From Escherichia coli O157:H7 (lineage in GTDB: Bacteria; Pseudomonadota; Gammaproteobacteria; Enterobacterales; Enterobacteriaceae), in assembly GCF_013167455.1 (NCBI RefSeq), contig NZ_CP038328.1: a stretch of 64,000 nt of DNA. The stretch is one strand, 5' to 3'. Below are positions 1-38,392 of the stretch, in pieces. The notes under the pieces were generated by a model. The model did not search any database. It saw only the letters and a program-made list of their open reading frames with translations, and was not told the DNA's origin. Numbering within the stretch: the first letter of the stretch is position 1; each line of letters opens with the position of its first letter. A program made the position numbers and the translations under genes.

Positions 1-3000
1 ACTCAATAATCTCAGCCCAACTCTCATCAGTCTCTGGTACTGCCTCTGGCGTTGCCGAAACTTTAGTGTCAACGCTTTCCTGCGGTAAATGCACGGCTTT
101 ACGGCTGGTAAAGGTCATATCCGGCAGGAACTGTAACAGGTTTACCAGTCGCCAGAAGCCATTGAGTCCCGCTTCATAACCGTCATCCTGCGTATAGCGA
201 TCGTCAAAACAGATATGCAAACGCAGCCAGCTGCGCATTTGTGCGACGCTGGTCGTCGGTTTAATGGCTTGTTGTGGTAACACCGAAGCCAGCTCAATAA
301 ATTGCTGCGATGAGTTACAGCTATCGAGTAAACCACCAAAGACAAACGGTTCGTCTGGCAAAAGCTCTGCTAGCCGCCAAGCTGGCGCGTTTTCCTGCAT
401 TTCATAGGCATACTTTTGTTTCGTTCCCGCGTCCTGTGACTTCTTCACATCCAACCACACCCAGGCATGTGCAGCAGCCATTCTCTGCCATAACTGCGTT
501 CTTCCGCCCGGATCGGCGAGATAATCCAGCAGCAGTGCAAAACTGTTGCGTTCCCGGAACGACGCTTCAAGGGCCGCAAAGTTGGTATCATGAAACAGGT
601 TATAAAACTTAGGCTGTTTCATATCCGGGTTATGCCCAAGTCCCAGGACATCCTGAACATGTTTAAGCCCTGGCTCTTTGAGATCGGCCCACGTGACTGT
701 CCACACCCAGAAATTACCGCTATCCCGAATCGCCTGGCGTTTTTGCACATCCTCTGCGACGCTATTTTTGTGGAACGCAAAGCCATCAAGGAAAATAGCC
801 ACCGGTTTAATGGCATCAGACTGCATAAGCGGATATAGCACGTAATCCGGGCGACAAGGGATCCCCACCGCCTCTTTAGCGCCTAAATCCACCTGAGCTT
901 TAAGATGCCAGCTCATCATCGGTTCGCTGCGGGTGTTAATAATCCACCCAGCGCCCTGATGCGCGTAACTGCGACTGACAATCAGGTTTTTATTTTCTTG
1001 CAGGCAGCTAATAAACCGTTTTTCCAGCTCACTGCCCATCATGGCTTCGAGGGAAATGTTTTTGATGGAATCAATTACCCGTATCGAATCTCTTGCCTGC
1101 AAAATTTTCGCCAGCAAGAGACGCGCCTGATCGCGGGAGACATACTTCATGCGCCCACGGTCACGGTAAGCGTAAACGCAACGATAACAACCATCTTTAT
1201 GCGTATCATTGTTGCAACTGCATTCCACTATTGCCTGATAGGCCAGTTCAAGTAATTTCAGCAAATTGTCGGGAGTGCGCATCAGTTCTTTAAGAGAACC
1301 AGTCCCCCCCGGGACGGTATCGTAAATCACCAGATACTGCCGCCAGGATTCGCCTTCATTTTCCGGCTCGCGGTACACAACGCCTTTCAGGTGATCGACA
1401 TTCCCCTTGAAGTAATGTTTAAGACCGAGCTGGATCGCCGCCCCAAGAGAAGCCTCCACGACACGGTCATTACTGTAACTGCTTACCGGGAGCAGAATAC
1501 GCAACGCTTCTGACTCCAGCTGGCGATAGAGGTAGAGATAATCTTCGAACTTCGCCTTTTCCGGTTCCGTGCGATATTTGCAGCTCAAATCATGACGTGG
1601 TTCATGATCGCGAGGACGCTGCACCATGCCGCACCCGAGGCAAACTTTAAACCCGGTTCGCTTCTTCGCTTCTCCGGCAATCATCAACTCATTGGCATCA
1701 TCCGCCATTTTGCCGAAGTTGATATCCCGCAGGGTGACTTTGCTTAAAAATTCAAAACCAAACGGAACTTCGCCTTCCTCAATCGCGTATGCCGCCGATA
1801 CATCTTCTTTTTCGAAACTAACCAATAGCTGACGCTGGAAGAAAGCAGGTTCACGGCTGTCGCTCTCGTCGCTGATCTGGCTATCACGTGCGCTGGCGCG
1901 GGCATAAACCTGGCGAAGTTTCAGCAGCGTGGTTTTTTGTCCGGCATCGGCCCACCCCGGTGTGCCACATTTCGGGCAATATTTATGCTGGTCGCCCGTC
2001 TGGTCGATATTTTCGCTGTAGTTACAGTGGCTACAGATACGCCAGTTCTCCGGCTCAGAGACCTTCAGGTCTATCTGCTCAATTTCAACTTTATGCCCAC
2101 CGGCATAGAAATTATTCAGCGGAGCCAGCTCAGCCAGCGCCGTTGATGCCGGGCGTTCATATTCGAAAGTGGTGTTTTGATATTCACGTGCTTCCCCGCC
2201 TTCTTTACGCCGCCAGAGCACAGAACGTAACGTAATACCGGCTTCCGGGAAGGCGTAGTTAGGCAGCAGACCTTCATCCGTGAGGAAATTCAGCGTTTGC
2301 TTATTGTTGATTTGATTGACCAGCGCCATCAGCGCCTGCCGTTCCGAAGTTAACTCGCGCATATCGCTATCAAAGTTTTGATCGCGCGGCGCGTTCTCCA
2401 GTTTATCGATACTGCGCTTGAGTTTATCGATGCGTGAGCGCAAAGATTTGCGATCTTCCACCAGCAGTTTTAACGCTTCTTCGATACGCTGCACCAGCGA
2501 GCGTTGTCCTGGCGCGCCCTGAAGATAAGACAACAGCTGTTGGCGAGTTTCTGCGGCAAGATCGGGGAAGATTGCCGTAAATTGCGCAGCAATCTCCGCA
2601 TGATGCTGTTCGATATATCGCAGTAAGTTATACGGAAAACCCGATTTACGCCCGAACTCCAGCTCATCCAGCATCTGTTTGACGTTTTTACAGATAGCGG
2701 ATTCTGGTACACCGGTTTTCACCCAGTTATCCATACAAAAAGCTGCCAGCTGGCGTTCGAGAATAGCCGTTGCATTAAGGAAGACGCCAGGAGCCTGCAC
2801 CTGGCCCTGCATCATCTCCAGTGGTTCTTCAAAGAAAAACTGATCGTGCGGGTTCCCTTCTGCCACGGTAATGTTTAACGCGTTACCATCTTTACGACCG
2901 GCGCGACCAATACGCTGCAAGTAGTTGGCCTGAGCAGGTGGGACAGAACAGAGTAAAACGGTGGAAAGATCCCCAACGTCAATACCCATCTCCAGCGTCG

Positions 3001-6000
3001 GTGTTGCCGACAACAGGTTGATATTCCACGGTTGGTTGCCGCGGTAGAACGATTTTTCGGTGACTTCGCGATCTTCACGGCTAAGCAGCCCCGTGTGTTC
3101 TGCGCCCTGTACGCGCGCGATGTCCATGTTCTCCCAACGCCAGGTCGCCGTATTGTCGACTTCCTGGTAACGACCTTCACAACGTAAAGAGAGACAAGGC
3201 GCATTACGCCACTGCCAGCCTTGATCGGCCGGAGCCCGGACAACCTCACGGCAACATGAGCAATTAAGCTGAACGACGTCACGGCTCACCACCAGCGCCG
3301 AAGGCACCAGTCCCCAGGCTTCACGCCCTTTGGTGTCAAAATCTTTTACTACTCCGGCTATTTTCAACGCCGTAAACAGGCGTCGTAACACTGTTTCCGC
3401 AACGCTACTGATAAACAGATTATTGCCGTTACTCAGCGTGCGATTGATCCAATGCTGATACCAACTGGGGTTAGACTTCGCGCCAATCAGGCGATGGAAA
3501 CCATTAATTTTTTCAAACGACGCATAAGCCGGTTTACGCGTTTTCGGACCGATAGAAGGCATATAGCGCGAGGTACGCTCTTTTTGCGTCATCATAAAGG
3601 TCGTGCCATCACGGCGATAACTTTCGAACGCCGGATGCATAACGGCCCCGGCCTGGCGTTGATACCAGATAACCCCCAGCGCCAGGTGCGCTACCTGCTC
3701 GACGCTCACACCAGACATCTCATCACCCAGCTCTTCACAAAGCTGTTGATGCAGGGCGGTAATTGCCGGATTGAAGCGATCTTTATCCACTCCGGCAACG
3801 GCATAACCGGTGGCTTCCAGCGTACGTCCGATACGCGCGCGCAGGGTAAATTCGCTGTACACCTCCCAGTCGAGGCGCAGGGAAACCAGCTCCGGCAGAT
3901 CGGAGTTCTCCGCCAGTTTGCCTTCATTTTTCAGCGTCTGATAATCATTCAGCCACTGCATATTTGGTGCGATGACGTTTGCTGCAAAATGAGCATCGTC
4001 CGGTGAACGTTCACGCGTTTGTTGGCAAACACGCGCCGCGAACGCATCCAGCGGTAATGTCTCTTTTTCGCTAAGAACACTGGCGATTTGCCCACGAATC
4101 ATCAGCGGCCAGGTACGGGCAGTAAAGAAGCTGGCACGATGCGCGGCGTCTTGTACCGAGTCAGAAAACGTAATCAGCTTTTTATGTTCGTTGAACTGGC
4201 TGCCATAAAGCTGGTGAATCATCACCGCCGACAGACTGGCAGCCCGTGACCCCAGAATCGAAATCCCCTGTTTGCTGTTGCAGTACGGGCATTCATTAGC
4301 AAACTCCAGCTCGTCCTTACGCTCTTTGAGCATATCCGGGATCAGTACCTGCAACAGTTCCGTATGACCGCAATGTCCACACTGGACGCTGGACTGTCGG
4401 TTCAGTTTCAGACAGGTAGGACACAGTTTCTGGTGTGCGCCACTGACCGCTTTTTCGTTGTTATCCGGGAAAGCAAGGACGATGGAGCGCCCTTTTTCAA
4501 AGAACTGGCGATAAATGCCGTCGAGGTCTGTTTCCAACTGAACGCTTTGCCCATGACGCAGGCTGGCCCAGCCAGTTGCGTGGCAGTCACGGCAGTGGAT
4601 AACCGGCAAATAGTGTTCGCGATCTTCCACCGCCACATCATCGGCAAACACCAGTCGGGGCGTTTTCGCCACGCTGGCGACCAGACGACGCATCTCACGA
4701 AGCCACAACTGGGAGCGCAGTTGCACAAACGGCAGCACCGGACGCGCTTTCTTCGCCTGGAGACGTTTTTGCCGATCGTGTTCCGTTTCCGGTACTTCGA
4801 GACGTGCCTGCGCGATCAGTGCCAGAATGCTTTGCAGCACGCGTCGGGCATGGTCGGCGCTTTCTGCCAGCATGACCTGGAGATTTTCCAGACACTCTCG
4901 TTCAGAGAGGATCCCGCCTTGCAGATCATGGAGTAAGACATGCATCACGCTGTGGCGGCGTAACAGTGACCCCAGCGCAATACGCTTTTCACGCCCGTCG
5001 TCGCTCTCCAGATCGTCCGGGAGTTGCAAGTCGCTGTCGGGGAACCACAAAGGGATTTGCCCGTTAAGATACGCTACCGGGGTAGCGTAACTCTGCGGGT
5101 CCAGGGCCGAAGCGACCTCCGGCCCCGGATACTGACTGTACGCAATGGCGTAATTCTGCAAGTACTCCGCTGCCGTGTAGCGATCTTCGCGAATAACGGC
5201 GTCATCGGTAAACGGCTGGTCAAAGATTGTTTTTGCGTAATCGAGCAGTTGCCCCAGTTCGTCGCCGACGGTAGCTGATGTCCCGACGCAGGCGAATCGT
5301 TGGTTATCCACACCTATGTGATGCTTCAAACGTCGCACCAGACAGGCCAGATCCGACCCTTGCGCGCCATCAAACGTATGCAATTCATCCACGACCAGGT
5401 AACGCAATGAACCGGGCTGGTTGTAACGCCAGAGCGGCTGATCGCCAGGGCGCATCAGCAGGTAGTCGAGCATTTTGTAGTTGGTCAACAGGATGTCCGG
5501 CGGGCTTTCGCGCAGCGTGTGCTTACAGGTAATGACCTTTTCTGCCGACATTTTTTTGCTGGGTTCGATTTCGCTGTCGCCGACAAACAGGCCGACGGTC
5601 ACCTTGCCATGCAGTTGTGGATCGCTGGCGATGGTTTTGGCGAAACGGCTGGCCTGATCGGTTGCCAGGGCGTTCATCGGGTAGATGATAATCGCTTTAA
5701 CCCCGGCTTGTGACGCGCCCGCGCAGTGGTTGAGCAGCGGGAACATAAAACATTCTGTTTTACCGGAGCCGGTACCGGTTGCGACCAGCGTCGGCTGTGG
5801 CGCGTCGCTTCCCAGACGCTGAAATGCCCGGGCCTGATGCGCGTGCGGCGGGAACGGCAGCGTCAGATTAGGGAAAAAATTCAGCGGTAAGTCACTTTTA
5901 CGAAACGGCAACTGGGCGGAAAGGTATGGTCCTTTCAGCAGCGTTTCCGGCTGGGCCAGAAATTGCTCCAGCATTGAGACATTATCGTTATTCTCACCGT

Positions 6001-6088
6001 TAAACAGCGGGCTGTTTAGCGGGAACGCCGCCCGTAAAAAGGCGGCAACGCTGTCGGCGACCTGCCGACTGACAACGGACGGCAACAT
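1..6088 (-). CDS. Giant DExH-box helicase with C-terminal Cys-cluster/DUF1998-like region (DruE / DrmA-DrmB-like); partial, runs off window start (>2029 aa)
   Basis: Absent from ORF track because no stop codon lies inside the window. ATG at 6088-6086 overlaps the TGA of the upstream gene (TGATG). Hand translation of this minus frame starts MLPSVVSRQVADSV. Walker A TLVATGTGSGKTECFM was checked codon by codon at 5791-5744; DELH box, QRIGRAGR motif and Cys cluster ECSCNNDTHKDGCYRC (~1215-1168) were read by eye. The track reports no >=60 aa ORF in this minus frame anywhere in 1-6088, while the other two minus frames have several, consistent with one continuous open frame. Confidence 0.7.
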   Translation of the reverse strand, partial: MLPSVVSRQVADSVAAFLRAAFPLNSPLFNGENNDNVSMLEQFLAQPETLLKGPYLSAQLPFRKSDLPLNFFPNLTLPFPPHAHQARAFQRLGSDAPQPTLVATGTGSGKTECFMFPLLNHCAGASQAGVKAIIIYPMNALATDQASRFAKTIASDPQLHGKVTVGLFVGDSEIEPSKKMSAEKVITCKHTLRESPPDILLTNYKMLDYLLMRPGDQPLWRYNQPGSLRYLVVDELHTFDGAQGSDLACLVRRLKHHIGVDNQRFACVGTSATVGDELGQLLDYAKTIFDQPFTDDAVIREDRYTAAEYLQNYAIAYSQYPGPEVASALDPQSYATPVAYLNGQIPLWFPDSDLQLPDDLESDDGREKRIALGSLLRRHSVMHVLLHDLQGGILSERECLENLQVMLAESADHARRVLQSILALIAQARLEVPETEHDRQKRLQAKKARPVLPFVQLRSQLWLREMRRLVASVAKTPRLVFADDVAVEDREHYLPVIHCRDCHATGWASLRHGQSVQLETDLDGIYRQFFEKGRSIVLAFPDNNEKAVSGAHQKLCPTCLKLNRQSSVQCGHCGHTELLQVLIPDMLKERKDELEFANECPYCNSKQGISILGSRAASLSAVMIHQLYGSQFNEHKKLITFSDSVQDAAHRASFFTARTWPLMIRGQIASVLSEKETLPLDAFAARVCQQTRERSPDDAHFAANVIAPNMQWLNDYQTLKNEGKLAENSDLPELVSLRLDWEVYSEFTLRARIGRTLEATGYAVAGVDKDRFNPAITALHQQLCEELGDEMSGVSVEQVAHLALGVIWYQRQAGAVMHPAFESYRRDGTTFMMTQKERTSRYMPSIGPKTRKPAYASFEKINGFHRLIGAKSNPSWYQHWINRTLSNGNNLFISSVAETVLRRLFTALKIAGVVKDFDTKGREAWGLVPSALVVSRDVVQLNCSCCREVVRAPADQGWQWRNAPCLSLRCEGRYQEVDNTATWRWENMDIARVQGAEHTGLLSREDREVTEKSFYRGNQPWNINLLSATPTLEMGIDVGDLSTVLLCSVPPAQANYLQRIGRAGRKDGNALNITVAEGNPHDQFFFEEPLEMMQGQVQAPGVFLNATAILERQLAAFCMDNWVKTGVPESAICKNVKQMLDELEFGRKSGFPYNLLRYIEQHHAEIAAQFTAIFPDLAAETRQQLLSYLQGAPGQRSLVQRIEEALKLLVEDRKSLRSRIDKLKRSIDKLENAPRDQNFDSDMRELTSERQALMALVNQINNKQTLNFLTDEGLLPNYAFPEAGITLRSVLWRRKEGGEAREYQNTTFEYERPASTALAELAPLNNFYAGGHKVEIEQIDLKVSEPENWRICSHCNYSENIDQTGDQHKYCPKCGTPGWADAGQKTTLLKLRQVYARASARDSQISDESDSREPAFFQRQLLVSFEKEDVSAAYAIEEGEVPFGFEFLSKVTLRDINFGKMADDANELMIAGEAKKRTGFKVCLGCGMVQRPRDHEPRHDLSCKYRTEPEKAKFEDYLYLYRQLESEALRILLPVSSYSNDRVVEASLGAAIQLGLKHYFKGNVDHLKGVVYREPENEGESWRQYLVIYDTVPGGTGSLKELMRTPDNLLKLLELAYQAIVECSCNNDTHKDGCYRCVYAYRDRGRMKYVSRDQARLLLAKILQARDSIRVIDSIKNISLEAMMGSELEKRFISCLQENKNLIVSRSYAHQGAGWIINTRSEPMMSWHLKAQVDLGAKEAVGIPCRPDYVLYPLMQSDAIKPVAIFLDGFAFHKNSVAEDVQKRQAIRDSGNFWVWTVTWADLKEPGLKHVQDVLGLGHNPDMKQPKFYNLFHDTNFAALEASFRERNSFALLLDYLADPGGRTQLWQRMAAAHAWVWLDVKKSQDAGTKQKYAYEMQENAPAWRLAELLPDEPFVFGGLLDSCNSSQQFIELASVLPQQAIKPTTSVAQMRSWLRLHICFDDRYTQDDGYEAGLNGFWRLVNLLQFLPDMTFTSRKAVHLPQESVDTKVSATPEAVPETDESWAEIIE

Positions 6089-9000
6089 CAGGCGCTCTCC
6101 TTATCTTGTGCAAAGAACGCCCAGGCCACTTTGTAGTCATCTTCGCGATCTGGCTTGATAAACGGAGCCTGCCAGGTGACGGTACGGCGCTCACCTTCGT
6201 CGCTGCGGGTATAATCATCAAAGGTGACGCTGACGGTACCGGTTTTAAGATGTTTGACATCATCCCAACCGATAGCTTGATCGGTGCAGTCACCGCCGGT
6301 CCACTCCGGGCTGTCGACGTTAAAGACAAAGCCGTTTTTCAGGTCAGCTTTACGCGCGGTGCGAGGCAAGCCAACGCCCACCAGCCCTTTGCTTGGGGTA
6401 AAGATAATGCGACCGTTTTGATCGTACCAGGTATCCGCTTCGTACTGGCGCATCACCGGGAACTGAACGCGATAAATGGTAAGCAGCTCTTCGAGAGTTA
6501 ACCCCAGCGCCTGCGCCACCAATACGTCGATTTCCACCAGCGCCTGACGACGACTGTAGTCAGAGCGTAAAGCGCAGTTACGCTGCCACTCTGGGGTCAG
6601 TTTGGCGAAGAAATCCTGGGGGAGCTGCGGGAGATCGCGGCTCCAACGCTGGGTGTTGAAGTCTGGGGTGTAGCAGGATTGCCAAAGGCCAGCATATACA
6701 TCATTTACAGAATTTAATGATAATACTAAGCAGTATAATAATGCCTTTTGTCTCGGATTGAATAATACGTATGAGAAACCATCAAGCATCTGATGTAAGT
6801 TTGCCTTGCCAGTAGATTTACAAATAAAATCAAAAGGTAAAGAAAAACACATACCTGAATGTTCGAGTAACAGATTCTGTGAGCTATAGCAGTAAGAACG
6901 TACTGCGTTCATGTGACTTATTTCTGGCGGATAAATAGCACTAATTAGTGTACGTTCCCCCGATTGAGCCAACATGGCTCTGATAGCTAAGCGATAATAA
7001 TCTGTTACCTTCTTCGGTTCATCTTCAGCCAGTTCAGTCCATGTAACGCATGGAGTACGTTTTGCATACTCCTGTGCATCACATGCCGGAATGTAGTTAG
7101 TGCGCGGCAGATAGTCGTCAGGCAGAGTTAGCAAGTCCAGGCAGTCATAATCGCTGTTAAGCGTACAGTTTTCGCGCGGAGTCTTGTAGAACGGCGTCCC
7201 AACAAAGAAATGAGGGCCAGACAGTACCCATTGTGATGAATCTTGAGGGAATTGAGTCTGCCGTAAAATTGTCCCATCCCTCTGAGCATATGTTTCATCG
7301 AACATAACCGTTGAAAAATACTGCCCCTGCAAATCACCTAATCTATTCGGCTGATTAGCAAACTTTTCCAGTACAGCAACAAGTTGTTTAGCATGTAAGG
7401 CTGGCAAACGTGCCTGCCAGGCTGGCGTTCCTTCGCTGTCATATAGACGAGCAAATAATTCTAGCTCATGAGTGGCGATACTTATTAATCGAGAACGGTG
7501 GCCAGATGTGTTCCATACAACTTTTAATTTTCCCTCGCTCTCAATCTCGTCTTTGAGACCGGGAATGTCCCCACTGCCAGAATGTTCAAAACATGCATCA
7601 ATAGTTTGCGGAGCATACAAATTAGATATATGTTCAAATCCCACTGTGCTAGGGCTAGCAGAATAAATATTGCTGCTAAACTTCGCATGGTGATCAACTT
7701 CAACAAACAAATTTAACTCATTCTGAAACTGAAAATGCGCCCTCAGCCTCGGATATACCGCCGCACGTAATTGCCCGCCTTTCGGGTCATCATAAATCCC
7801 TTCCGGGTGCAGGAAACCTGCCACGCCTTTCTGCGCCCCTAATCGCCAGGCCTGCGGCAGAAAGCATTTATACAAGTTGGTCTGCACCCCGCGCAGTACC
7901 GGGTAGTTCTGCTGCGCATTCAGGAAGTTTTGCATCCCTTCACAGCCTTCATACTCGCTGCGCCAGGCCGCTTCCAGCGCCGGGATCTGGTTAAAGGTAT
8001 CAATACGCAACGTTGCCAGCTTCGAGGCGCTCAGCTTACGCAGCACAAATTCCGGCTCGTAATCACCCAGCACGCCCGCTTCCTGCCATTCCACTTTCAG
8101 CCACGGCGGGTTTCCGAGCATCAGGTCAAAACCGCCGCGCTCGGCAAACAGGTCGCAGAACTCCAGATCCCAGTGGAAGAAACGGTGCTGCTTTCTCAGG
8201 GCATCGACAATCGCCAGACGCGGCAAATGACGGAACAACACCTCGGTTTTCAGACGACCAGCAACAGAAAACAGCGAAGACTCTTCTCGCAGCAGGCCTT
8301 CTTCGGCAAACAGATCGCCGGTGGTGTGCTCCGCAACTTCAGTGACTTTTTCCGTGATTACAATCCCGTCAAGCAGGGTTTCAATCTCAAACAACCAGGT
8401 GCCGCGATCCGGTAGCTCATCGGCTTTGTCGATCGGCCAGAACCACAGCGCGCACCAGTAGTCCATTACCCAACGCAGCTTCTGGTAGGCGCTGTTATCT
8501 TCAAGACGACCGCTAAAGGTTTCATCTTTACTGCTCAGCGAAGAACGCGTCTGCTCGCTGTTTTCTGCCGGCCACACCGGGTAGCTGTCGGCGGTTTTCA
8601 GACGTTCTGCTTTAAGTTGCTGGCGATAGGTGTTCCACAGTGCTTCCACCTTTTCGCTGATACGCTGCACATCAGCAATCTCATGCCCGGCAAAGCTTTT
8701 AATAAACTCTTTGCGCCAGCTGTCCAGCGCTTTGAAGTCATCCGGATAACGCTGCTTAACAGTTTTATCGCTGTAGTTAGCCATACCGCCGTCGGGCAGC
8801 AGGAAGTGGAAAATCTGCGTCTCTTCACGCGGCGTGTTCATCGCCAGTTCGACCGGCTCGCTGTTAAGCCAGCTCGGATCTTTGGCTTTTTTGTAGGTCA
8901 GTTCGCTCTTGTTGAACACCTGACGGCGCGCGCCCACCAGCGAGTTACCGCAGTGCAGCTGGTAACCAAACCACGGTACAAACGCATCGCCACTAATGGC

Positions 9001-11022: not shown

Positions 11023-11024
11023 GA

Positions 11025-13883
11025 TTAACCCTCCGCTCCGGTGATAACAGCAATTACCTGAATGTAGGGTTCTTTTTCAGTCGTCATGGTGTCCTCAATC
11101 CATTCGATATAGCTGTCAAAATTGTGTTCGATTTCGCGTTGTCTCTGCTCTTTACGGCTCTGCTTGACTGACAATTGCTGTTTGTTATCGGCAAAATCCA
11201 GCTCAAGTTGGCTCAACTGCCGCCCACGCAAAACGTCCAGCTTTTGCAGATGCTCATTCAGTTGCTGGTTAATGTGCGTTTCAAACGCATTCCGATCATG
11301 GATGAATACCTCCCGGGCATGAGCAATAGCCGCTTCCAGTAAATCCTGCTGGCGTTGGTGATTACGATCTTTACCGCCGCTGTTAGTCAGCTTGTTACTC
11401 AACTGCGGATGACGTTGTAAAAACTCAGCGAAAGGCTGACTGCCGATTAGCGATTCACGGTTAAAGCTCACCACTATCCACGGGTTCACCATCGGATGTG
11501 ATTTACGGTTCGGGAATAACCCGGAAAGAATGAAGTGATCTTCATCGGGTTCAAGCAGGTATGGCAGCCGGATAACCGGAGCCTGATGACGACCAAAAGC
11601 CGAAGAGATTTTATCGTCCAGCCACTGCACTACCGGGTTGATTTGCCAGAGATACTGCACATCGGGCCAGGCATGTTGCTCACCGCGAGCGCGCGCAATC
11701 GCGTCGGTGATGACGGTTTTATCCTGACTTAAATAGAGCTGCCAGTTCTCCGGGGCAATTTCAGGCGGTAGCTGGTTGAAGCGGCGGCGTAACTCCTCCG
11801 GTGCCACCAGCGACAAGGTATTATCAGGCAAGGTTTCATACTGGATAGTTTGACCACTGGCTTTCAGGTAACCCAATGCTCTTTCGCAGTACGCCTGTTC
11901 GCTGGCAAACAAGCTGGTGTCTGTTTCGGTGACCATTGAGGCATCGCTGGAAACCGCACTGCATATTTCGCCAAACAGATCGTGTTCGGCGCTTTCCGAG
12001 ACGTTGCTGTTCAGCAGTTGATCAAACAGGCTGGCACCATCATCCTGCATCATGAACTCTGCAACCTGCTCTTCTTCCTCTTCCTGGGTAAATTTGCCGG
12101 TAAACTCCGAACTGTCCCCAATGTTCTTCTGCGCCTGTTCGTCTTTGTTGATCAACACTTCCAGTACGCGCATATCGCCATTGATCTGTGGTTCGCTGGC
12201 CTCGGTAAGCAGATAGCGGATTTGGGGCTGATGTTTTTGCCCATAGCGGTCAATACGCCCGTTACGTTGCTGGAATACCATCAACGACCACGGAATATCA
12301 AAGTGAATCATTTTGTGGCTAAGGTGATGCAGGTTGATCCCTTCAGATGCCACATCCGAACAAACCAGAAGACGCAACGGCGACTGCGTTTTACCAAAGG
12401 CTTCTACGGTTTCCATCAATACCGTATCGCCCTGATCGCCGCGCAGCGTGGCGATCTGGTCATCTTTCAATTTCAGATCCGCTCGCAGTTGCTGTTCGAG
12501 GAACTCCAGCGTTTTAATACTTTCGGTGAAGATCACCAGGCGATCTTCCGTGTTATTGGCTTTCCAGGCGAGGTCTTTTCGGATGGTGTCGAGCAGCAAC
12601 TGGTATTTGCTAAACTGGCTGGCATCAATGTTATTCAGCGCCAACAGCAATGACTCCAGTTCGTTGATCTGGCTCTGGCTATTATGATCTTTACGGCTCT
12701 CAAGACGCTTCAGACGATTCGCCACGACGCTGGCACACGCCATCGGGCTGGAAAATAGCGCTTTTTCGAGGGTTATCTTGAACAGACGACCTTTGTTAGA
12801 CTGGGCCTGTTCATCGTCATCATCACGGAACTGGCTCTCAACCAGACGACGGTATGCTTCTTCTTCGGCACCGGATGCCAGGCGAGTCAATTTGACAATA
12901 TTGCGCTCGGGGAACTCGCCGGACATCTGATCTTTCACGTCTTTTTTGAAGCGACGGACAACCAGATTTTTATCGGCAAAATCGGCGTATTCATACTCTT
13001 TCGGGTTGGCGATCGCCGTCGGGTCAAGCATGTTCATCAGGCTGGCAAAACTTTCAGCCTTACCATCATGCGGTGTTGCTGAAAGCATAATCAGCGTATC
13101 GCTGCGCCCGGCGAGCAGTTTTGCCAGTTTACTGCGTAACGAACTGGTTCCACGTTCTGCGACGTTATGGGCCTCATCAATGACAATAATATCCCACCAG
13201 GCATTTTCCAGATGGTGACGATATTCAATGTCTTGTTTCAGCGTATCGATGGAGATAATGGTCTTGTCAAAATAGTGGAACGGGTTGTGGTTGGTTGGGA
13301 TGCGGTTACGCACCTTTTGTAAACCAGCAGAATCCAGGCGGGTCAATGGGATCGCAAAACGGCTCCAGAACTCCTTCTGGAATTGTGTCAGCATCGATTT
13401 AACCGCCAGAACCAGAATACGTTTTCCGCGCCCACGACGGATCAGTTCCGAAACCAGAATACCGGCTTCCAGCGTTTTACCCAGACCAACAGCGTCGGCA
13501 ATGAGTATCCGCTGACGCGGTTGTGCCAGCGCCATCCGCGTAGGATCGAGCTGAAACGGCATGGAATCCATCGCCGCCAGATGACCAAAATGGACTTTAC
13601 TGTCTGTCGGTACGCGTTGGCGTAACTGACTTTCAATATACAACTGTGCCGCTTGATAATTGGCGGATTCATCTTCCACCAAATGCGTTTTTGCGGGATC
13701 CAGGATCTCTACTTTTTGTTCCAGTTTGGTCAGAAATAACCCTTCTTTACCGCGCACAAGCTCTGAAATACCATCGCAGGTCAGCAAATACCCACCATCA
13801 CCACTGTCATCCGCCCGGCGAATACGCCATTCGGCATCACGAATAACCACCCGCATACCAGGTGCATAATTTTGCTTATTCAT
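11025..13883 (-). CDS. SNF2-family helicase (952 aa), candidate DrmD-like
   Basis: Track ORF. Motif I DAVGLGKT, motif II IVIDEAHN (DEAH), motif III LSATP, C-terminal helicase motifs DVASEGINL and QQRNGRIDRYGQ. Confidence 0.8.
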   Translation of the reverse strand: MNKQNYAPGMRVVIRDAEWRIRRADDSGDGGYLLTCDGISELVRGKEGLFLTKLEQKVEILDPAKTHLVEDESANYQAAQLYIESQLRQRVPTDSKVHFGHLAAMDSMPFQLDPTRMALAQPRQRILIADAVGLGKTLEAGILVSELIRRGRGKRILVLAVKSMLTQFQKEFWSRFAIPLTRLDSAGLQKVRNRIPTNHNPFHYFDKTIISIDTLKQDIEYRHHLENAWWDIIVIDEAHNVAERGTSSLRSKLAKLLAGRSDTLIMLSATPHDGKAESFASLMNMLDPTAIANPKEYEYADFADKNLVVRRFKKDVKDQMSGEFPERNIVKLTRLASGAEEEAYRRLVESQFRDDDDEQAQSNKGRLFKITLEKALFSSPMACASVVANRLKRLESRKDHNSQSQINELESLLLALNNIDASQFSKYQLLLDTIRKDLAWKANNTEDRLVIFTESIKTLEFLEQQLRADLKLKDDQIATLRGDQGDTVLMETVEAFGKTQSPLRLLVCSDVASEGINLHHLSHKMIHFDIPWSLMVFQQRNGRIDRYGQKHQPQIRYLLTEASEPQINGDMRVLEVLINKDEQAQKNIGDSSEFTGKFTQEEEEEQVAEFMMQDDGASLFDQLLNSNVSESAEHDLFGEICSAVSSDASMVTETDTSLFASEQAYCERALGYLKASGQTIQYETLPDNTLSLVAPEELRRRFNQLPPEIAPENWQLYLSQDKTVITDAIARARGEQHAWPDVQYLWQINPVVQWLDDKISSAFGRHQAPVIRLPYLLEPDEDHFILSGLFPNRKSHPMVNPWIVVSFNRESLIGSQPFAEFLQRHPQLSNKLTNSGGKDRNHQRQQDLLEAAIAHAREVFIHDRNAFETHINQQLNEHLQKLDVLRGRQLSQLELDFADNKQQLSVKQSRKEQRQREIEHNFDSYIEWIEDTMTTEKEPYIQVIAVITGAEG

Positions 13884-13951
13884 CGGTTTTTCTGTCTATT
13901 TGGGGCAGTGGCGGTAACGTCATCCTGAAAAATGTGGCGCGGCACACTGCG

Positions 13952-13987
13952 ATAAAAAAGAGGGCCTTAAAGATATCATGAAGGCCC
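13952..13987 (-). terminator. Rho-independent terminator downstream of the DruE-like gene
   Basis: On the minus strand: GGGCCTT stem, 12-nt loop, AAGGCCC, followed by CTTTTTT (plus-strand A-run 13954-13959). Confidence 0.5.
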
Positions 13988-14106
13988 CCGGCAAAGTGAC
14001 AAAATGGGAGGGAATGCGCATAAATTGCGCATGATTTTCAAACAAAAATTATTAAAAAGTGAGCTGGGTCAACTCCCCTGGAAGATATCCCCAGGGGAGC
14101 AATTAT

Positions 14107-17100
14107 TTATCCAGCGATAATATAACTCCTAAGGTCATTACCCGGGGCAACAGCTCGCGCTCGCGTGTTTGCCAGCCGTTCAACTTGCTGCGGTACTCGC
14201 AGGGCAAAATCAAAGAAGGTATCTTCAATACAGCGCCAGTAGCTAAGCCCCATGTCGAGCAGGACATAATGCTGACTGCCATCGCTGAAGGTGACTGTCA
14301 GTTCTCGTCCATGCTCCGTACTCTGGTTATCCCCCGTTAACCAGCTAATTGCTCCCGGCCACGCAGGCCCCAGATATCCTTCTTCAAGTAAAGTGGTCAC
14401 AACCTGCTGACGATCTTCCTCATTAAGCCACGCGTTATAGAGAGCGTCGTGTTGGCGAGAGTTGTAATCCAATTTTTTGACGCAAACAGTGAGGCTGGCG
14501 CGTTCCGCCATTCCCTGTTCAACCAGCTCGGTTAAGATTTCACCTAACAAACGCGCCGTGAATGGGCTATTAAGATAACGATCGCTGTACTCAACATGCG
14601 TTATCTCTTTGTGGCGGGTAAATGCCTGCTTCCAGCCAGCGTGCTGTTGCGTGACTAACGACCAGAAACGCGAACCAAAACCTTCCAGCGGCCCGTCCAG
14701 TTGTTCACAGAGATTGATGCGCACCGCCCCGGTGGGTAAGGCGGGCAGTAAATCTTCTGCACTTAAGGTCTGACCCGAGAAGGTTTTTCCGGACGTTCCT
14801 TTAAGTGTCACTACTGGTGAAGACGCACTTTGTCCCCATAATTCACCAGGTGCAACGGTAGCGCTGTCGTCTGCGGCCCACTGTTGGCTTTGCCCTTCGC
14901 GAGTCACCTGCGCAAGCCAGCGCCCCTTTCCTTGCATGAGCTGCGCAGTGGCAATGGATTTCACTTGTAAGCGACCTCCCGGCATCGCCGCCAACGCGGA
15001 AAGCTGATGTCTGGAGCTATCAGTTAAGTTTGCCAGCGGCGTGGCCACCAGCAACTCAACATTCCCACCGGAGGAGGCAAACTGGAGCAACTCTTTAAAT
15101 AATGGCCATTGGGCAAAGTCCCACTGTTCCTGCGGCCCCGCAAGAACCAGCGAGCAGGAGTCATAAATCTCGCTGTTCAGGCATTGCGCAATACGTAAAC
15201 TCAGAGGGTTAGTTTCAACCCGGCTACCATCGCCGAAGTACTGATATTCTGGCGCGAGGTTAAGTCGCTGCAACCGTACATTGGTAAGCAGGGTTAATGC
15301 ATGGTGACGATCTAATCTGTTGACATAATGCTGACTGTCGTAGCTGAGCAAGCAGTGGTGACAGAATTTATCGCAACTGCAATCGAGCAATTTTCTGGCG
15401 TAATTAAAGACATCAGCCCAATGGTCGATCAATTGCACTGCATAACCTGCACCACCCGCATTATTGTCGTAAATGAAGATGGAATATCCGGTATAGCCAT
15501 TGATATCGCGCGCTTGCTGCGTCGTCACGCCCAGCTCAGTATTTTCGATACCCAATTTATGCGCTAACCCTTCACGCAAAGCGACCGCAAGGGAACGCGC
15601 GGCAACCTCATCACGGATCAACAGGCCATTATCATCATTGAGTTGCAGCTCAACCATATCTGTACGACTGCTATATCCCAACCACAGATCTTTATGCACA
15701 TGACCGTGGCACAATTTATTGCTCCCCTGACGATCGTTACTGCCCCCTCGCAACAGGTAATGCGTATTTTCCCTCTCTGGGTTCTTTAGATTTTCAGGGG
15801 TACGCTGGGGTTGAGTTTGAGATTCTGCCCGACCACATGAGAGGCAAATTGCGTAGCCGTGCCCAAATTCCCCTTCACTGAAGTGGAACAATTCCCCACT
15901 ATGGCTAAAACGGTAACGTCCTAGCCCAGCATCGGGTAAAGAAACCCACACCGAAGACGGTACAAGAACACGTGGATCTTTCCAGGGAAGTTGTGCAGGC
16001 ATGGATACATCATTATGTGCCTGATAACGAATATCTGTCGCAAAACCAACAGGCTGTAAATAACGCTTCACATCAAGTTGCTGTATATCCGCTTTGCAGT
16101 GACTACATTCGACAGGATGGGTAGTACTGGTTGCCCCCGCACCACATTTACGGCAATGCCAGAACCACGGAATATGATGATCGCCTGACAGCTCCTGCCC
16201 GCTGGCAAGCACCTTGCCAAGCATAATGCCCGAGGAACGATATACTTTTCCGCCCAATACCACATCTGCACCAGGCGCATACTCGCGTAATGCTGTAGGC
16301 AAATCACGGCTGGGCAATTTTTCAATACGACGAGAAAAGCTTTCTCCCCCTTCATTAGGGTCAGCCTGAGTGGCTTTTATTGCGCGACGTTTTTCCAGCT
16401 CATCTGCCGTCAGATAATTGAAATTGACTACGCCAACCGGGAAACCATGCCCCGGCAGGAACGCTTCACTAATGAGTTTAGAAAACAGATATGCACCGCG
16501 ATAATCACGAAGCTGATAAGCGATGGCTTTACCTGCTGGTGTTTCTTCCCACGCGCTGTTATCCGCCTTCAACGCTTCGATATTTTCCAACAGTATCGCA
16601 AGTTGGCTTCTCCAGCGGATATCAACCTGCTGCATCATTGCTTGTGTGCGGGTCAAGAGCTGGGTTGCCGTCAATGACATCAGTACGGTTCCCTGAGTAA
16701 GGCGTTTAAGTTTATCCGCCAGCTGATCGGCCTGGTGATTTAACCAATGGAGAAAACGAAGACACTGGCTCTCATCACCTTCAAAGAACCATTTGCAACT
16801 CAGTTTTGTCGCATCAGGAACTTCAGCTCGTAAAAACAGACCTAAAACCAGGGCATTAACATGTCGTTGAACAATACTACTGCTCCCAAAACGAACCCGT
16901 GGCGCACTGGCAGTAGTGTTGAACGCCCAGAGGGGGTCTTTGAATACCTCCATTCCATGCGCCGTGTTTTTACATAACGTAATGGCAGCAGATGCACTCT
17001 CTCCACGACGCCCCGCGCGACCTGCACGTTGCAAATAATTTGCCGGCGCTGGAGGAACGTTGTTCATTGCCACCAAACTCATACCACCAATATCCACCCC

Positions 17101-20100: not shown

Positions 20101-20430
20101 GTCTTCCAGAATCGTTCGCCACGCAGTAAGTTGATGACGAAATGGCACTGGCGCTTTGCTCAATGCATCAACCAGCGGGCTGGAGATCAGCTTGTCCCGC
20201 AAATCCTCCATTGTTTCATCCGCAGGCATCCAGCCGAATGTACTTTCGAATACCGGGTCTGCAAGCAGTGACCCCTCCTGACCGGGAGGCTGAAAATATT
20301 GTGATTCCAGATAATGAGTCAACGACTTGCTCCGCAATGCCAACTGACTTACCACCGACCTCACCGCACGCTGATGAAGCTGATTTAGAAGTGGCGCATA
20401 ATGCAGTTGCTGAACGTCCATCAATGACAT
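14107..20430 (-). CDS. druE: DruE-like giant DExH helicase with Zn-finger/DUF1998-like region (2107 aa)
   Basis: Track ORF. Walker A LLVSSGTGSGKTECFM, DEAH box IVLDEAHSY, multiple CxxC pairs, C-terminal Cys cluster LDCSCDKFCHHC. ATG overlaps the end of the upstream 1119-aa gene (10-nt overlap, with a second in-frame ATG in a TGATG arrangement). Confidence 0.75.
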   Translation of the reverse strand: MSLMDVQQLHYAPLLNQLHQRAVRSVVSQLALRSKSLTHYLESQYFQPPGQEGSLLADPVFESTFGWMPADETMEDLRDKLISSPLVDALSKAPVPFRHQLTAWRTILEDKKSLLVSSGTGSGKTECFMVPVLEDLIRQQKSTRQSLTGTQAIFLYPLNALINSQQERLREWTRGFKGKIRFALYNGETRHTKYEIQEDQLKVPEQALSREAIYEAPPSIMVTNTTMLEYMLIRRKDAPIIEKSQGMLKYIVLDEAHSYIGSQAAELALLLRRVMQAFNVGPGTDKPVQIIATSATIGEDSPEGNKELAKFVADLAGVTERDVKVVRGYRQIPRVSESLIRHEYPTSLTSLKSLSPQDLYQQLCHYRVAQQLRQALTHPGRQAVRLSELLNVARRTWPDINHRELLQLLDLMARSREGELAFTPLRMHGFIRTLAGLWACSNKQCSHKAHELNQSDWPFGQVWFEQRQYCDCGAPVFEVLRCSGCGSAYLSAKEEMRGDGTNWLVAQPAAAEVDEFALDVDVYSEDEDNDELDNNSQFDRLIASDGEKYIISLEETTAGKIDSEAQKHYEINLLRPESRGEGRNNSFACVCCGDTQRKNNPLFRPLRLGAPFFLNEIIPTLLEFSPLPQTREEQLGPFNGRRLLTFTDSRQGTARISARLQQDADKATLRALCYQELANITEPSAKLSPAHCALLEKVISQFSVLPLKNSIDALKKAMAANEELSPTDIQALKIIEPMVSSLSTEHAEAMQILQANSGNQQKKTMSWQTLSEQLVGSVDLADRMRGSFKELSGLDLTKQQFADFCLYSEFGRRPKNAWTLESLGLVAIHYPFIDKVTTCPQDWKTLLPDPDKQLAEWRNLLKITLDFFIRENSAVFYENEQYPRWMGARFPVKMLQGPDKKNKGQKRDQLWPQIRDRHYNRVIKLLIAVFPAIQPEQAHWKSLVNHLMIEVWDAIRPCLRQFESGYQLDIKQQAEFYSPKQVWRCPYTRRALDVTLLGYSPYLPGSKEIAPEKAVLIEMPELPVRHWRLSGGGEIAREERLEWLESNALIQHAREEGLWSTRSDRLALKDSWYRLEEHSAQRTPEQNQFNEKQFKSGKVNVLNCSTTMEMGVDIGGMSLVAMNNVPPAPANYLQRAGRAGRRGESASAAITLCKNTAHGMEVFKDPLWAFNTTASAPRVRFGSSSIVQRHVNALVLGLFLRAEVPDATKLSCKWFFEGDESQCLRFLHWLNHQADQLADKLKRLTQGTVLMSLTATQLLTRTQAMMQQVDIRWRSQLAILLENIEALKADNSAWEETPAGKAIAYQLRDYRGAYLFSKLISEAFLPGHGFPVGVVNFNYLTADELEKRRAIKATQADPNEGGESFSRRIEKLPSRDLPTALREYAPGADVVLGGKVYRSSGIMLGKVLASGQELSGDHHIPWFWHCRKCGAGATSTTHPVECSHCKADIQQLDVKRYLQPVGFATDIRYQAHNDVSMPAQLPWKDPRVLVPSSVWVSLPDAGLGRYRFSHSGELFHFSEGEFGHGYAICLSCGRAESQTQPQRTPENLKNPERENTHYLLRGGSNDRQGSNKLCHGHVHKDLWLGYSSRTDMVELQLNDDNGLLIRDEVAARSLAVALREGLAHKLGIENTELGVTTQQARDINGYTGYSIFIYDNNAGGAGYAVQLIDHWADVFNYARKLLDCSCDKFCHHCLLSYDSQHYVNRLDRHHALTLLTNVRLQRLNLAPEYQYFGDGSRVETNPLSLRIAQCLNSEIYDSCSLVLAGPQEQWDFAQWPLFKELLQFASSGGNVELLVATPLANLTDSSRHQLSALAAMPGGRLQVKSIATAQLMQGKGRWLAQVTREGQSQQWAADDSATVAPGELWGQSASSPVVTLKGTSGKTFSGQTLSAEDLLPALPTGAVRINLCEQLDGPLEGFGSRFWSLVTQQHAGWKQAFTRHKEITHVEYSDRYLNSPFTARLLGEILTELVEQGMAERASLTVCVKKLDYNSRQHDALYNAWLNEEDRQQVVTTLLEEGYLGPAWPGAISWLTGDNQSTEHGRELTVTFSDGSQHYVLLDMGLSYWRCIEDTFFDFALRVPQQVERLANTRARAVAPGNDLRSYIIAG

Positions 20431-30144: not shown

Positions 30145-30343
30145 AATGGTCTTCCTTCCATTGGTATCTCGTGAGTATACAAGCAATATCGAATCGGCAA
30201 ATATACTCATTAGTATACTCACAAGCCTGTTGATGTGGGTTGGTTCAGGTTGACTTCAGTTGAGGAGAAAAGCTGGAAAAGCCTTGCGTGGCGCGGATTT
30301 CAGGCATAAAAAAAGACCTCAGTTGAGGTCTATTTACATACTT

Positions 30344-30369
30344 TTGGTGCCGAAGGCCGGACTCGAACC
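30344..30369. repeat. 26-bp direct repeat of the leuX 3-prime end (att-type repeat, island junction)
   Basis: TTGGTGCCGAAGGCCGGACTCGAACC is identical to 40414-40439, which lies inside the tRNA gene; flanks diverge on both sides. Confidence 0.8.
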
Positions 30370-30859
30370 TAAGTCTCCATAACCTGCTGTAATCACGTTC
30401 CTATTAGCCTTTAAAAGAACAATCGTAGGACCTTTTTGTTCTAGGGGCTACATCTTAAGTTTGATCCGCTGGACGGAATCAAACCGAGTGTTCGTGGCGG
30501 CACAAATCATTAACGTGCCATACCTGCCTTTTGATGTTTATGGAGGTCTAGTGGGTCGGGAGGAAAGAACATTTGTCAGCTATGTGGATGTTAAGTAAAC
30601 GCCACTGCGTTCGGATTTTGAAACCAGTTAAACCCCGTCAGACCTTGTTCAGAATAACTATTTAACTCAATGTTATTTATATGAATTAAGCCATTCAGCG
30701 TCAAAGTAAAACGCCACCGTAACGCCTACGTAACGCACCCGCATTTTGCTGTTTTATTCACTCTTATAGAAACAAAGAGCTGATGAAACGTGAGGCTATC
30801 AGCATCTAATGAACACTGTTCATCCATACAGCATGAAAATTCATAAACTTACACTTGAG

Positions 30860-31324
30860 CTACTTTCTCAGCTTGTCCCACCGAACCGCAGATACAATAC
30901 CCCAGTTGCCGCTAGGATTAGGCCTACGCCATTTTGCTGTCTCCATGCTACGAAGATACTCAAGAGCTTCAGAAAACGTGCCAAACCGCTTCTGAGCCGT
31001 TTTATCACCTACGCCAAACGAGCCATCGCGAGTGCTTGCCAGCCCGGGATGAAAACACGAGCCATCAGCTGCATAAGGAACCAGTAATTCCGGGTCACTA
31101 TCTTCAGATGAATCAGACACCAATAGTCGCCACGGCTCAACACTCAGAGCATTAGCCAGCACCTCAATCGCATCCAAAGACGCATTAGAGCCACCGCGTT
31201 CAATGCGGCTCATATAGCTACGAGCAAAACCACACCGATCGGCAAAGGCTTCTTGGCTCATTCCGGTGGCAATGCGCAACTCTTTTACTCGTTGTCCAAA
31301 CAGTTTTCTCAGGGTCATTTTCAT
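30860..31324 (-). CDS. XRE-family helix-turn-helix transcriptional regulator (154 aa)
   Basis: Track ORF; N-terminal HTH LRIATGMSQEAFADRCGFARSYMSRIERG. Confidence 0.7.
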   Translation of the reverse strand: MKMTLRKLFGQRVKELRIATGMSQEAFADRCGFARSYMSRIERGGSNASLDAIEVLANALSVEPWRLLVSDSSEDSDPELLVPYAADGSCFHPGLASTRDGSFGVGDKTAQKRFGTFSEALEYLRSMETAKWRRPNPSGNWGIVSAVRWDKLRK

Positions 31325-31440
31325 GACCTGAATTTGCGCAGATGTCCACTAAAGAGCCACGCTCCAATAGTGACATTTTGAATCAATGGTCTATGATGCG
31401 ATAACTGACACCGCTGGGGTGGATTCTGAGGGATAACAAC

Positions 31441-32214: not shown

Positions 32215-32365
32215 AAACGTAGGTGCCTGAACATGATAGAACTCAGCTGCCAGCATAGAGTGGAAAGCGGAGGCTTACCATCGTATATTCATCGCGTTAT
32301 CTTTCCGTAACTATAATCTGTCTCAGTTGATCTAGTGCCTTTCAGGGCTGAACTAAGGAATAAAG

Positions 32366-33682: not shown

Positions 33683-33880
33683 TTTATTTTTGATAGTATG
33701 AACGAGGGTAGCATTTCTATACAAATCAGTGTTCGGCTGATAGCGAGTTAAACAGTTTACTGAAATGTTCTCAGCAATTAGCTGTTGCCAGGACCTCAAA
33801 AATCCGATTCTGGCGGAAAGTGTGCTGTTTTACCAAGTATTGCTCGTATCTGCAAAGTGTTAGAGCATGTTTTAAGTATA

Positions 33881-34450: not shown

Positions 34451-34642
34451 AGTCATCTCCTCATCCGGCCCCTGCCAGAAAACGGTGATGAAAATAGGAT
34501 GGCCTGCCGGAAAAGCCAAGGCTAATTTTCCAACAGTGTGAAAGCGTGCGGTTGGAGGATGCCGGAAAACGGTCGTTTGTTGGCGCTTAAAACGGGTGAA
34601 GACATGTTAGGCTGAAACCATCACTTCATAAGGACAACCGAA

Positions 34643-36446: not shown

Positions 36447-36567
36447 GTAATCAAGTGTATTAGCTTAGATTTGACCTAAACAGCTTTGTGCCAAAAGTGG
36501 ACTAGGAAAAGCCTAGCGATAAAGAGTTGAGTTTAATAACTACTAACTGAAATTTAATGGGTGATAT

Positions 36568-36945: not shown

Positions 36946-37127
36946 CTAACTAAATAATTTTCCCCTAAAAAAATTCGATGTAGGAAAATATATATAAGTA
37001 AGAATCATGAGTGTCCGCTCCTCGCTCAAGGCGGACTGTTAGACTTGATTGTATGCTGTCAGAGAAAACCGTCAGATCAATTCTGTGAACCGCCCCGGGT
37101 TTCCTGGAGAGTGTTTTATCTGTGAAC

Positions 37128-38341: not shown

Positions 38342-38392
38342 CCTGTTTACCTCTTTCTCAGGGAGTTTAGTCTCCAGGATTTCCGGGGCGGT

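Follow-up and report, generated by a model that had tools for sequence, protein, structure and literature searches.

Two adjacent giant YprA/MrfA-family helicases of Escherichia coli O157:H7 as ArmC of ARMADA type II and DruE of Druantia type III-A

Two genes, each coding for a helicase of about 2100 amino acids, follow one another on the minus strand of the tRNA-Leu island OI-172 (O-island 172) of Escherichia coli O157:H7, raising the question of whether they are copies of one gene, look-alikes with a common SF2 core, parts of a single machine or related motors at the center of two separate systems. The window, i.e., the whole 64,000-nucleotide stretch of DNA analyzed here, is 100% identical to EDL933 and many O157:H7 genomes. 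A sequence-only reading of it had placed the two giant genes where we find them and had taken them for paralogous DruE-like helicases.

We put at roughly 93% the reading that positions 1-23780 of the minus strand hold two adjacent co-directional anti-phage operons, namely druH-druE (Druantia III-A) and armA-armB-armC(-armD) (ARMADA II), each built around a ~2100-aa YprA/MrfA helicase with a shared motor and a differing terminal module. The identification is based on the match to EDL933 DNA, the RefSeq accessions, the published citation of WP_000937974.1, the residues mutated by Bell et al. and the PADLOC, NCBIfam and Pfam assignments. We found nothing that contradicts it. The paired giant helicases are the published ArmC and DruE: the observation is correct and already known. 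Their adjacency, homology and synergy are in print (bioRxiv 2025.09.15.676423, 2025.09.22.677730 and four Druantia III preprints of 2026 that include structures), and as reports describing, naming and testing the locus date from September 2025 onward, the finding brings no new knowledge. The locus itself is biologically important and bears on phage therapy. The operon-level features are as follows:

20421..23780, minus strand: druH, the Druantia III partner (YjiT/STY4851 family), 1119 aa, full-length DruH3 match of 2554.9 bits
14107..20421, minus strand: druE (gene B), Druantia type III-A YprA-like helicase, 2104 aa, full-length PADLOC DruE3 match
13884..14106, minus strand: druE-armA gap of 223 bp, with a hairpin and a promoter-like site
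14072-14100, minus strand: hairpin with a 12-bp stem (-21.2 kcal/mol), directly 3' of the druE stop
13975-14002, minus strand: promoter-like TTGTCA-16-CATGAT, upstream of armA
11025..13883, minus strand: armA, SNF2/RapA/BrxHII/DrmD-like helicase by profile matches, 952 aa, with K136 and D236
6088..11022, minus strand: armB, PglX/DrmMI-like N6-adenine DNA methyltransferase, 1644 aa (type IIG REase-MTase model 952 bits, DrmMI 191 bits)
1..6088, minus strand: armC (gene A), ARMADA type II YprA-like helicase-nuclease, WP_000937974.1 (Pfam DEAD, Helicase_C, MZB)
just outside the window (3536-5650 of locus L001), following armC: armD, GajB-like helicase (GajB/UvrD match over aa 240-700)

The gene B product aligns with the PADLOC DruE3 profile PDLC00037 at 2184.9 bits, its residues 9-2105 covering profile positions 4-2051 of 2055, and druH lies directly upstream in the same operon, the combination that defines Druantia III. 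DruH also scores 986.8 bits against NCBIfam NF038336 (YjiT_fam; cutoff 150), and the DruE3 and DruH3 models are matched end to end, gene B showing no difference from Druantia III-A. Druantia type III reportedly goes back to Doron et al. in 2018. The Pfam domains of DruE are DEAD, YjiV_N, Helicase_C and MZB. Its longest open reading frame spans 14107-20430 (2107 aa), but the ATG at 20421 (2104 aa) appears to be the likelier start, as judged from its TGATG overlap with the druH stop, an AGGAG 10 nt upstream, the RefSeq start and the published residue numbering. Solved structures of a near-identical DruE exist (9tu7-9tuc); the 417-aa tail, which alone was compared, matches 9tu7 at E 1e-285. According to the Druantia III preprints (PMC13192584, 10.64898/2026.05.13.724758, 10.64898/2026.05.12.722862, 10.64898/2026.05.13.724313), DruE forms a dimer with 3'-to-5' helicase activity, for which exposed ssDNA or forks in DNA serve as loading sites, and defense requires DruH. 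The preprints conflict as to cleavage, with some reporting nuclease activity of DruE/DruH and others finding none, along with dispensable PLD domains.

Gene A belongs to a different operon context, with a methyltransferase and an SNF2 helicase in place of DruH, just as the sequence-only reading had it. Its product is WP_000937974.1, the ARMADA type II representative of Bell et al. (bioRxiv 10.1101/2025.09.15.676423), and so falls in the ARMADA II clade by sequence identity. The window holds 2029 of the 2113 residues, the last 84 and the stop lying beyond position 1, and the complete sequence was taken from EDL933. The genes occur in the order armA-armB-armC required of ARMADA II, armA and armB being spaced by 2 nt and the armC start (ATG 6088) overlapping the armB stop by 1 nt as TGATG. 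The published motif residues are all in place: K136/D236 in ArmA, G605 and N971 (of NPPW) in ArmB, and K110 and D234 in ArmC, the residues mutated by Bell et al. In every respect, including the order armA-armB-armC-armD, the locus is the published ARMADA type II, which Li et al. tested in EDL933 (bioRxiv 10.1101/2025.09.22.677730); the window only truncates armC and omits armD. The N-terminal 240 aa of ArmD, for which a RelE-like domain has been claimed, have no match in Pfam or in a PDB sequence search. All four genes are required for defense. So are the ATPase motifs in both ArmA and ArmC, Walker A in ArmD and NPPW in ArmB, whereas mutants in the ArmD Walker B and the ArmB GxG retain partial activity.

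The comparison with the DruE and DrmA families that had been proposed for gene A places it nearer DruE, to which it has a partial PADLOC match of 348 bits in 2-3 stretches, than DrmA, at most 49 bits. It is not, however, a full-length DruE: the latter assignment was rejected given the partial match (348 vs 2185 bits for gene B), the lack of the Pfam family YjiV_N, which is present in DruE only, and the partners, which are ArmA, ArmB and ArmD rather than DruA-D, DruM/F/G or DruH. As the DruE match is partial, gene A is better termed DruE-like. With Druantia III-A it shares only the YprA-like motor and the inserted domains, and differs in tail and partners. ARMADA also recalls DISARM class 1: its SNF2 helicase is DrmD-like, its adenine methyltransferase DrmMI-like, and its YprA-family helicase has DUF1998. 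However, a single ARMADA reading frame codes for both the helicase and DUF1998, which DISARM splits between DrmA and DrmB, it has a Vsr-like domain fused to ArmC rather than a separate PLD gene (DrmC), and it possesses an additional GajB-like helicase. ArmA, moreover, scores 349.7 bits against the DrmD equivalog, below the cutoff of 610. On these grounds, DISARM class 1, with gene A as DrmA/B, was rejected. Among solved structures, the closest to ArmC is DruE, followed by 9wae (a 1970-aa 'Helicase') and then YprA/MrfA (6znp, E 3e-20). The last, a Bacillus subtilis helicase, shares the RecA1-RecA2 pair and the OB-CON-DUF1998 canopy, but at 751 aa lacks the BrxA-like, Zn-finger and MarR-like inserts and the nuclease-like C-terminal tail, and acts in repair rather than defense.

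How far, then, does the likeness of the two proteins extend? Their parts map as follows, with DruE in the 2107-aa numbering:

5258..5848, minus strand: ArmC RecA1 block, aa 81-277 (34% identity to DruE 96-300)
5753-5776, minus strand: ArmC Walker A motif GTGSGKT, with K110
5378-5389, minus strand: ArmC DELH motif, with D234
3101..5257, minus strand: ArmC inserted middle region, aa 278-996, by AF2 model and hhalign against the DruE middle family
1103..3100, minus strand: ArmC RecA2 to OB-CON-DUF1998/MZB, aa 997-1662 (similar to DruE 1077-1718)
1178-1222, minus strand: ArmC four-Cys motif CSC..C..C, aa 1623-1637
2..1102, minus strand: ArmC C-terminal tail, Vsr-like, starting at aa 1663 and truncated at the window edge
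683-895, minus strand: Vsr-like PD-(D/E)xK core in the ArmC tail, about aa 1732-1802 (motif RPDYV...FLDGFAFH...D..KR)
20053-20076, minus strand: DruE Walker A
19660-19671, minus strand: DruE DEAH
17203-19530, minus strand: DruE middle region
15277-17202, minus strand: DruE RecA2 to MZB
15352-15381, minus strand: DruE Cys cluster
14110..15276, minus strand: DruE C-terminal tail, aa 1719-2107, with two PLD-like domains according to the publications

All motifs listed in the sequence-only reading are indeed present in both proteins: Walker A GTGSGKTECFM (ArmC 105, DruE 119), the DExH box (DELH at ArmC 234, DEAH at DruE 254), the CxxC pairs (ArmC 499-600, DruE 470-592) and the CSC..C..C cluster (ArmC 1623, DruE 1684). 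Both show the hallmark of the YprA/MrfA family, an SF2 DExH core followed by a four-Cys DUF1998/MZB module (Pfam MZB, PF09369). In pairwise blastp, the RecA1 blocks are 34% identical over 211 columns (E 3e-30) and the stretch from RecA2 to MZB 23% over 722 columns (E 2e-26), and a HMMER profile of 58 ArmC-family proteins matches DruE in three collinear blocks at E 6e-89. Judged from these alignments, the similarity far exceeds chance, and the proposed paralogy stands.

The profile of ArmC-family proteins detects no similarity to DruE in the middle region or the tail, and hhalign of the ArmC middle family against the single DruE sequence gives a probability of 0.7%. A signal emerges only with the DruE family alignment: family against family, the middle regions align with 96.3% probability (E 1.6e-9; 490 columns; 18% identity), ArmC 371-952 pairing with DruE 358-994 across the Zn fingers and a YSEF..R...TLE.G motif. 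The intermediate sequence P0104 links ArmC with DruE 115-695. In the AF2 model (pLDDT 87.4), the ArmC middle region consists of a helical domain, a Zn-finger β domain with CxxC at 499, 556, 570 and 600, and winged-helix-like helical domains, with CSCC at 943. A Foldseek search of the PDB with this model, in a fold library reaching to April 2026 but apparently without the DruE cryo-EM entries, gave no significant match; what came up were weak echoes of Fur/MarR-like folds and RanBP2 Zn fingers. The two proteins thus share one plan: an N-terminal strand, RecA1, inserted helical, Zn-finger and winged-helix domains, RecA2 and the OB-CON-DUF1998 (MZB) 'canopy'. This common part is the DNA-translocating motor.

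Beyond the motor, the two part ways. The tail of about 450 aa ascribed to both proteins exists in each (451 and 389 aa), but the two are without detectable similarity by pairwise or profile comparison and differ in fold. That of ArmC is the C-terminal Vsr-type PD-(D/E)xK nuclease domain expected of ARMADA II, and that of DruE a tandem of PLD-like domains without HKD, lacking the canonical HxK(x)4D motif and indeed any H.K throughout its length. Neither tail matches Pfam, even at E 10, nor does that of ArmC find a match in a PDB sequence search. In an exhaustive search of representatives, the ArmC tail has homologs in 949 representative clusters, nearly all of them proteins of ~2100 aa; a word-indexed search with the same tail returned only five fragments. 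With unrelated tails, the motor has been reused and the nuclease-like module swapped, so that the modular reuse suggested earlier holds for the motor and fails for the last ~400-450 aa.

Could the pair have arisen by a recent tandem duplication of druE within the island, one copy then gaining new neighbors? The genes are adjacent, share orientation, length class (2113 and 2104 aa) and a collinear domain order, as such an event would leave them. However, even their best-conserved blocks are only 23-34% identical, the tails have no detectable similarity, GC content differs (armC 0.53, druE 0.49; druH is at 0.395), gene A belongs to a large family of its own, and the published phylogeny splits the ARMADA from the Druantia clades; a recent duplication is effectively refuted. 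At the other extreme, the resemblance might be confined to the generic SF2 core without specific kinship, a view to which the HMMER profile, finding just the RecA1, RecA2 and MZB blocks, and the unrelated tails lend themselves. Yet generic SF2 helicases lack the four-Cys MZB/DUF1998 module that the two share, the inserted middle domains align profile to profile, no other helicase model in PADLOC comes near those of DruE for gene A, and ArmC has DruE as its closest relative of solved structure. The MZB block and the middle-domain alignment rule this view out, leaving it next to no probability. The outcome that would have undone the earlier proposal, a generic core with unrelated C-terminal regions, is therefore seen in the tails and not in the core. 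ArmC and DruE are instead ancient paralogs of an ARMADA-Druantia clade that have become neighbors on a mobile island.

There remains the question of whether two systems are present or one, i.e., a six-gene druHE-armABCD unit on a single transcript with the helicases as an obligate pair. The six genes are co-directional with only the 223-bp gap between druE and armA, and this junction occurs in essentially every ARMADA-bearing E. coli genome: of 5426 complete genomes, 520 contain the ARMADA stretch and 521 an unbroken junction. Since no U-tract adjoins the hairpin after druE, read-through is possible, and the synergy against many phages is strong. However, either system gives protection when it is cloned by itself with its own promoter, native hosts deleted for one keep the other active, E. 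coli strains with ARMADA II only (17) or Druantia III only (1) are reported, each system is widespread without the other, and a promoter-like site precedes armA. We regard a single system as very unlikely and favor two neighboring operons. Separate transcription, as earlier claimed, is made plausible by the hairpin, the promoter-like site and the independent activity, though with read-through it need not be complete.

Published work attributes phage resistance to this very locus in EDL933 and to homologs in ATCC 8739 and ECOR19, and the two systems synergize in EDL933 and ATCC 8739, making the pair a model of synergy between neighboring defense systems. ArmC would translocate along phage DNA and cut it with its Vsr-like domain, with self/non-self control possibly coming from ArmB methylation or from remodeling by ArmA/ArmD, as in DISARM. 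Direct physical cooperation as the cause of the synergy, raised in the literature as speculation only, could take the form of mixed ArmC-DruE assemblies through the homologous middle/dimerization domains, or of a hand-over of ssDNA or forks, the intact Vsr-like nuclease of ArmC supplying a cleavage that the HKD-less PLDs of DruE may not. We consider this unlikely, the more so for heterodimers given the ~18% identity of the middle domains. In the reading that we favor, the synergy would come from both motors acting on the same ssDNA-containing replication intermediates. The published outcomes are alike: ARMADA II acts non-abortively, and Druantia III clears the phage while the cell survives.

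Over its first 24 kb, the window matches many E. coli O157:H7 chromosomes at 100% identity, among them that of EDL933, where the region falls within O-island 172 (OI-172), an island adjoining tRNA-Leu. The genes of the two systems are arranged as follows:

Genes of the Druantia type III (dru) and ARMADA type II (arm) systems
20421-23780, minus strand, druH (1119 aa)
14107-20421 or 14107-20430, minus strand, druE
11025-13883, minus strand, armA (952 aa)
6088-11022, minus strand, armB (1644 aa)
from 6088 past the window start, minus strand, armC (2029 of its 2113 aa inside the window)
just beyond the window, 3' of armC, armD (704 aa, UvrD-like)

The sequence-only reading had placed both giant helicase genes correctly, but armC is incomplete at the window edge and druE more likely starts at ATG 20421 than at ATG 20430. 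ATG 20421 shares the sequence TGATG with the druH stop and follows an AGGAG by 10 nt, against 1 nt for ATG 20430; a 2104-aa DruE is used in RefSeq and in the published residue numbering.

In PADLOC, the druE product matches DruE3 at full length (2185 bits), and that of the gene upstream matches DruH3 (2555 bits). ArmC gives only partial matches to DruE (348 bits) and far lower ones to DrmA (49 bits), and is accompanied by ArmA, scoring as a DrmD/BrxHII-like SNF2 helicase, ArmB, scoring as a type IIG/DrmMI/PglX-like methyltransferase, and the GajB-like ArmD. The two helicases occupy different operon contexts, one with a SNF2 helicase and a methyltransferase and the other with DruH3. The RefSeq accession of ArmC, WP_000937974.1, is the ARMADA type II representative of Bell et al. 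(bioRxiv 10.1101/2025.09.15.676423), who define the system as precisely this four-gene array; hence, armC and its neighbors are ARMADA type II. The residues mutated in that study fall on the expected motifs here (ArmA K136/D236, ArmB G605/N971 and ArmC K110/D234). Some RefSeq records matching 14107-20421 label DruE a "motility-regulating DEAH-box RNA helicase"; according to a 2026 preprint, druE deletion in EDL933 leaves motility and fliC unaffected.

All the motifs listed in the sequence-only reading are found in both proteins:

Motifs of ArmC and DruE (DruE residues in 2107-aa numbering)
Walker A GTGSGKTECFM: ArmC 105, DruE 119
DExH box: ArmC DELH, 234; DruE DEAH, 254
CxxC pairs in the first third of the protein: ArmC 499-600, DruE 470-592
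CSC..C..C cluster: ArmC 1623, DruE 1684
C-terminal tail length: ArmC 451 aa, DruE 389 aa

The pairwise alignment proposed there as a check reveals homology reaching past the SF2 core. Two collinear blastp blocks link ArmC 81-277 to DruE 96-300 (34% identity, E 3e-30) and ArmC 997-1662 to DruE 1077-1718 (23% identity, E 2e-26), and a HMMER profile of 58 full-length ArmC-family proteins recovers DruE (E 6e-89) through three collinear blocks, namely RecA1, RecA2 and MZB/DUF1998. This profile has no match in the tail of DruE or in its middle region, an insertion of about 720-780 aa that separates RecA1 from most of RecA2. Profile-profile comparison of the middle regions, using family alignments built for each protein, pairs ArmC 371-952 with DruE 358-994 (96.3% probability, E 1.6e-9, 490 aligned columns), covering the Zn-finger motifs and a common YSEF..R...TLE.G motif, and in plain BLAST an intermediate sequence (P0104) links ArmC to DruE 115-695. 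The common architecture therefore extends from the N-terminus through the Zn cluster. A resemblance confined to the generic SF2 core is rejected by the MZB/DUF1998 block and the 490-column match. Likewise, an origin of the pair by local duplication is rejected by the 23-34% identity and the differing GC content (armC 0.53, druE 0.49, druH 0.395).

The tails show no similarity to each other by BLAST, HMMER profile or hhalign, and neither has a Pfam match. That of ArmC belongs to a family of 949 clusters at 50% identity, which nearly always terminates proteins of about 2100 aa and conserves the motif RPD(Y/F)V...F.DG..(Y/F)H...D..KR. The DruE tail matches the solved DruE structures 9tu7-9tuc, in which the 2026 Druantia III preprints describe two PLD-like domains. 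No HxK motif occurs anywhere in this tail (14110-15276), the nearest being H2040-G-R, in agreement with one such preprint, which states that the canonical HKD motif is lacking. Accordingly, the two-helicase observation is confirmed, and the proposed modular reuse holds for the motor only, the terminal nuclease-like module having been swapped. The homology of DruE and ArmC with differing C-terminal nuclease domains was noted by Li et al. (bioRxiv 10.1101/2025.09.22.677730); the whole finding is already in print, and the present analysis adds nothing new to it.

Bell et al. (bioRxiv 10.1101/2025.09.15.676423) report that ARMADA II protection is non-abortive and requires all four genes, the ArmA and ArmC ATPase motifs, the ArmD Walker A and the ArmB NPPW, whereas mutants in the ArmD Walker B or the ArmB GxG motif remain partly active. 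ArmC would cut DNA with its Vsr-like domain, and methylation by ArmB would mark self DNA. The 2026 Druantia III preprints describe DruE as a dimeric 3'-to-5' helicase loading on ssDNA or forked DNA. Nuclease activity of DruE/DruH is disputed: two 2026 preprints report it, whereas two report its absence and find the PLD domains dispensable. The HxK-less tail fits one preprint in which these domains are non-catalytic and dispensable; two others present DruE as a nuclease.

Both systems are reported active when cloned alone under the native promoter (Bell et al.; a 2026 preprint), and hence probably have separate promoters. The 223-bp druE-armA gap holds a promoter-like TTGTCA-16-CATGAT site and, directly after the druE stop, a hairpin (12-bp stem, -21.2 kcal/mol, z -2.3) with no U-tract beside it. 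The separate transcription suggested from sequence is therefore likely as regards promoters, with read-through possible. The systems travel together in E. coli with almost no exceptions: of 5426 complete genomes, 521 have an intact match to a 5-kb probe spanning the druE-armA junction, 520 carry the ARMADA stretch and 505 the Druantia stretch. Synergy between the two was shown in ATCC 8739 and EDL933 (bioRxiv 10.1101/2025.09.15.676423, 10.1101/2025.09.22.677730).

A Zorya type II operon (zorA2/zorB2/zorE, 23935-27465, plus strand; PADLOC 1002/346/583 bits) is transcribed divergently from druH and makes up the third system in the defence island published as OI-172. Within the druH-druE operon (14107-23780) the GC content steps sharply from 0.395 in druH, like the 0.38 of zorABE, to 0.489 in druE, a step for which no discussion was found in the accessible parts of the Druantia/ARMADA literature. 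A phosphorothioated-DNA-binding HNH restriction endonuclease (27850-28857, plus strand; NCBIfam NF045808, 416 bits, cutoff 180) is directly preceded by a fragment of a nanM pseudogene (about 27690-27938), left over from an older boundary of the island. A repeat of the last 26 nt of tRNA-Leu(CAA) (40414-40439) lies at 30344-30369, and the two copies bound a younger element, about 10 kb long (30344-40439), carrying IS1203, with its Rfam ALIL pseudoknot at 37944-38060, and an integrase (38393-40366) adjoining the tRNA. Just outside the repeat, towards the Zorya-Druantia-ARMADA island, which is older and immobilised, lies an integrase pseudogene (29317-30222); this layout agrees with the serial-integration picture of Bell et al. 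(bioRxiv 10.1101/2025.09.15.676423). The younger element also contains, at 30860-33682 (GC content about 0.41), an HTH regulator similar to R-M control proteins (30860-31324, minus strand) and, facing it, two ORFs (31441-32214, 257 aa; 32366-33682, 438 aa). Pfam, NCBIfam and PADLOC give no match for either ORF, and each hits only a PHROG of unknown function; this could be a cargo or defence pair not yet characterised. Outside the island, within 46514-46708 and 47542-47713 (minus strand), Rfam identifies the Ysr276 antisense RNA (177 bits) and a tandem pair of naRNA4 (82 and 78 bits).
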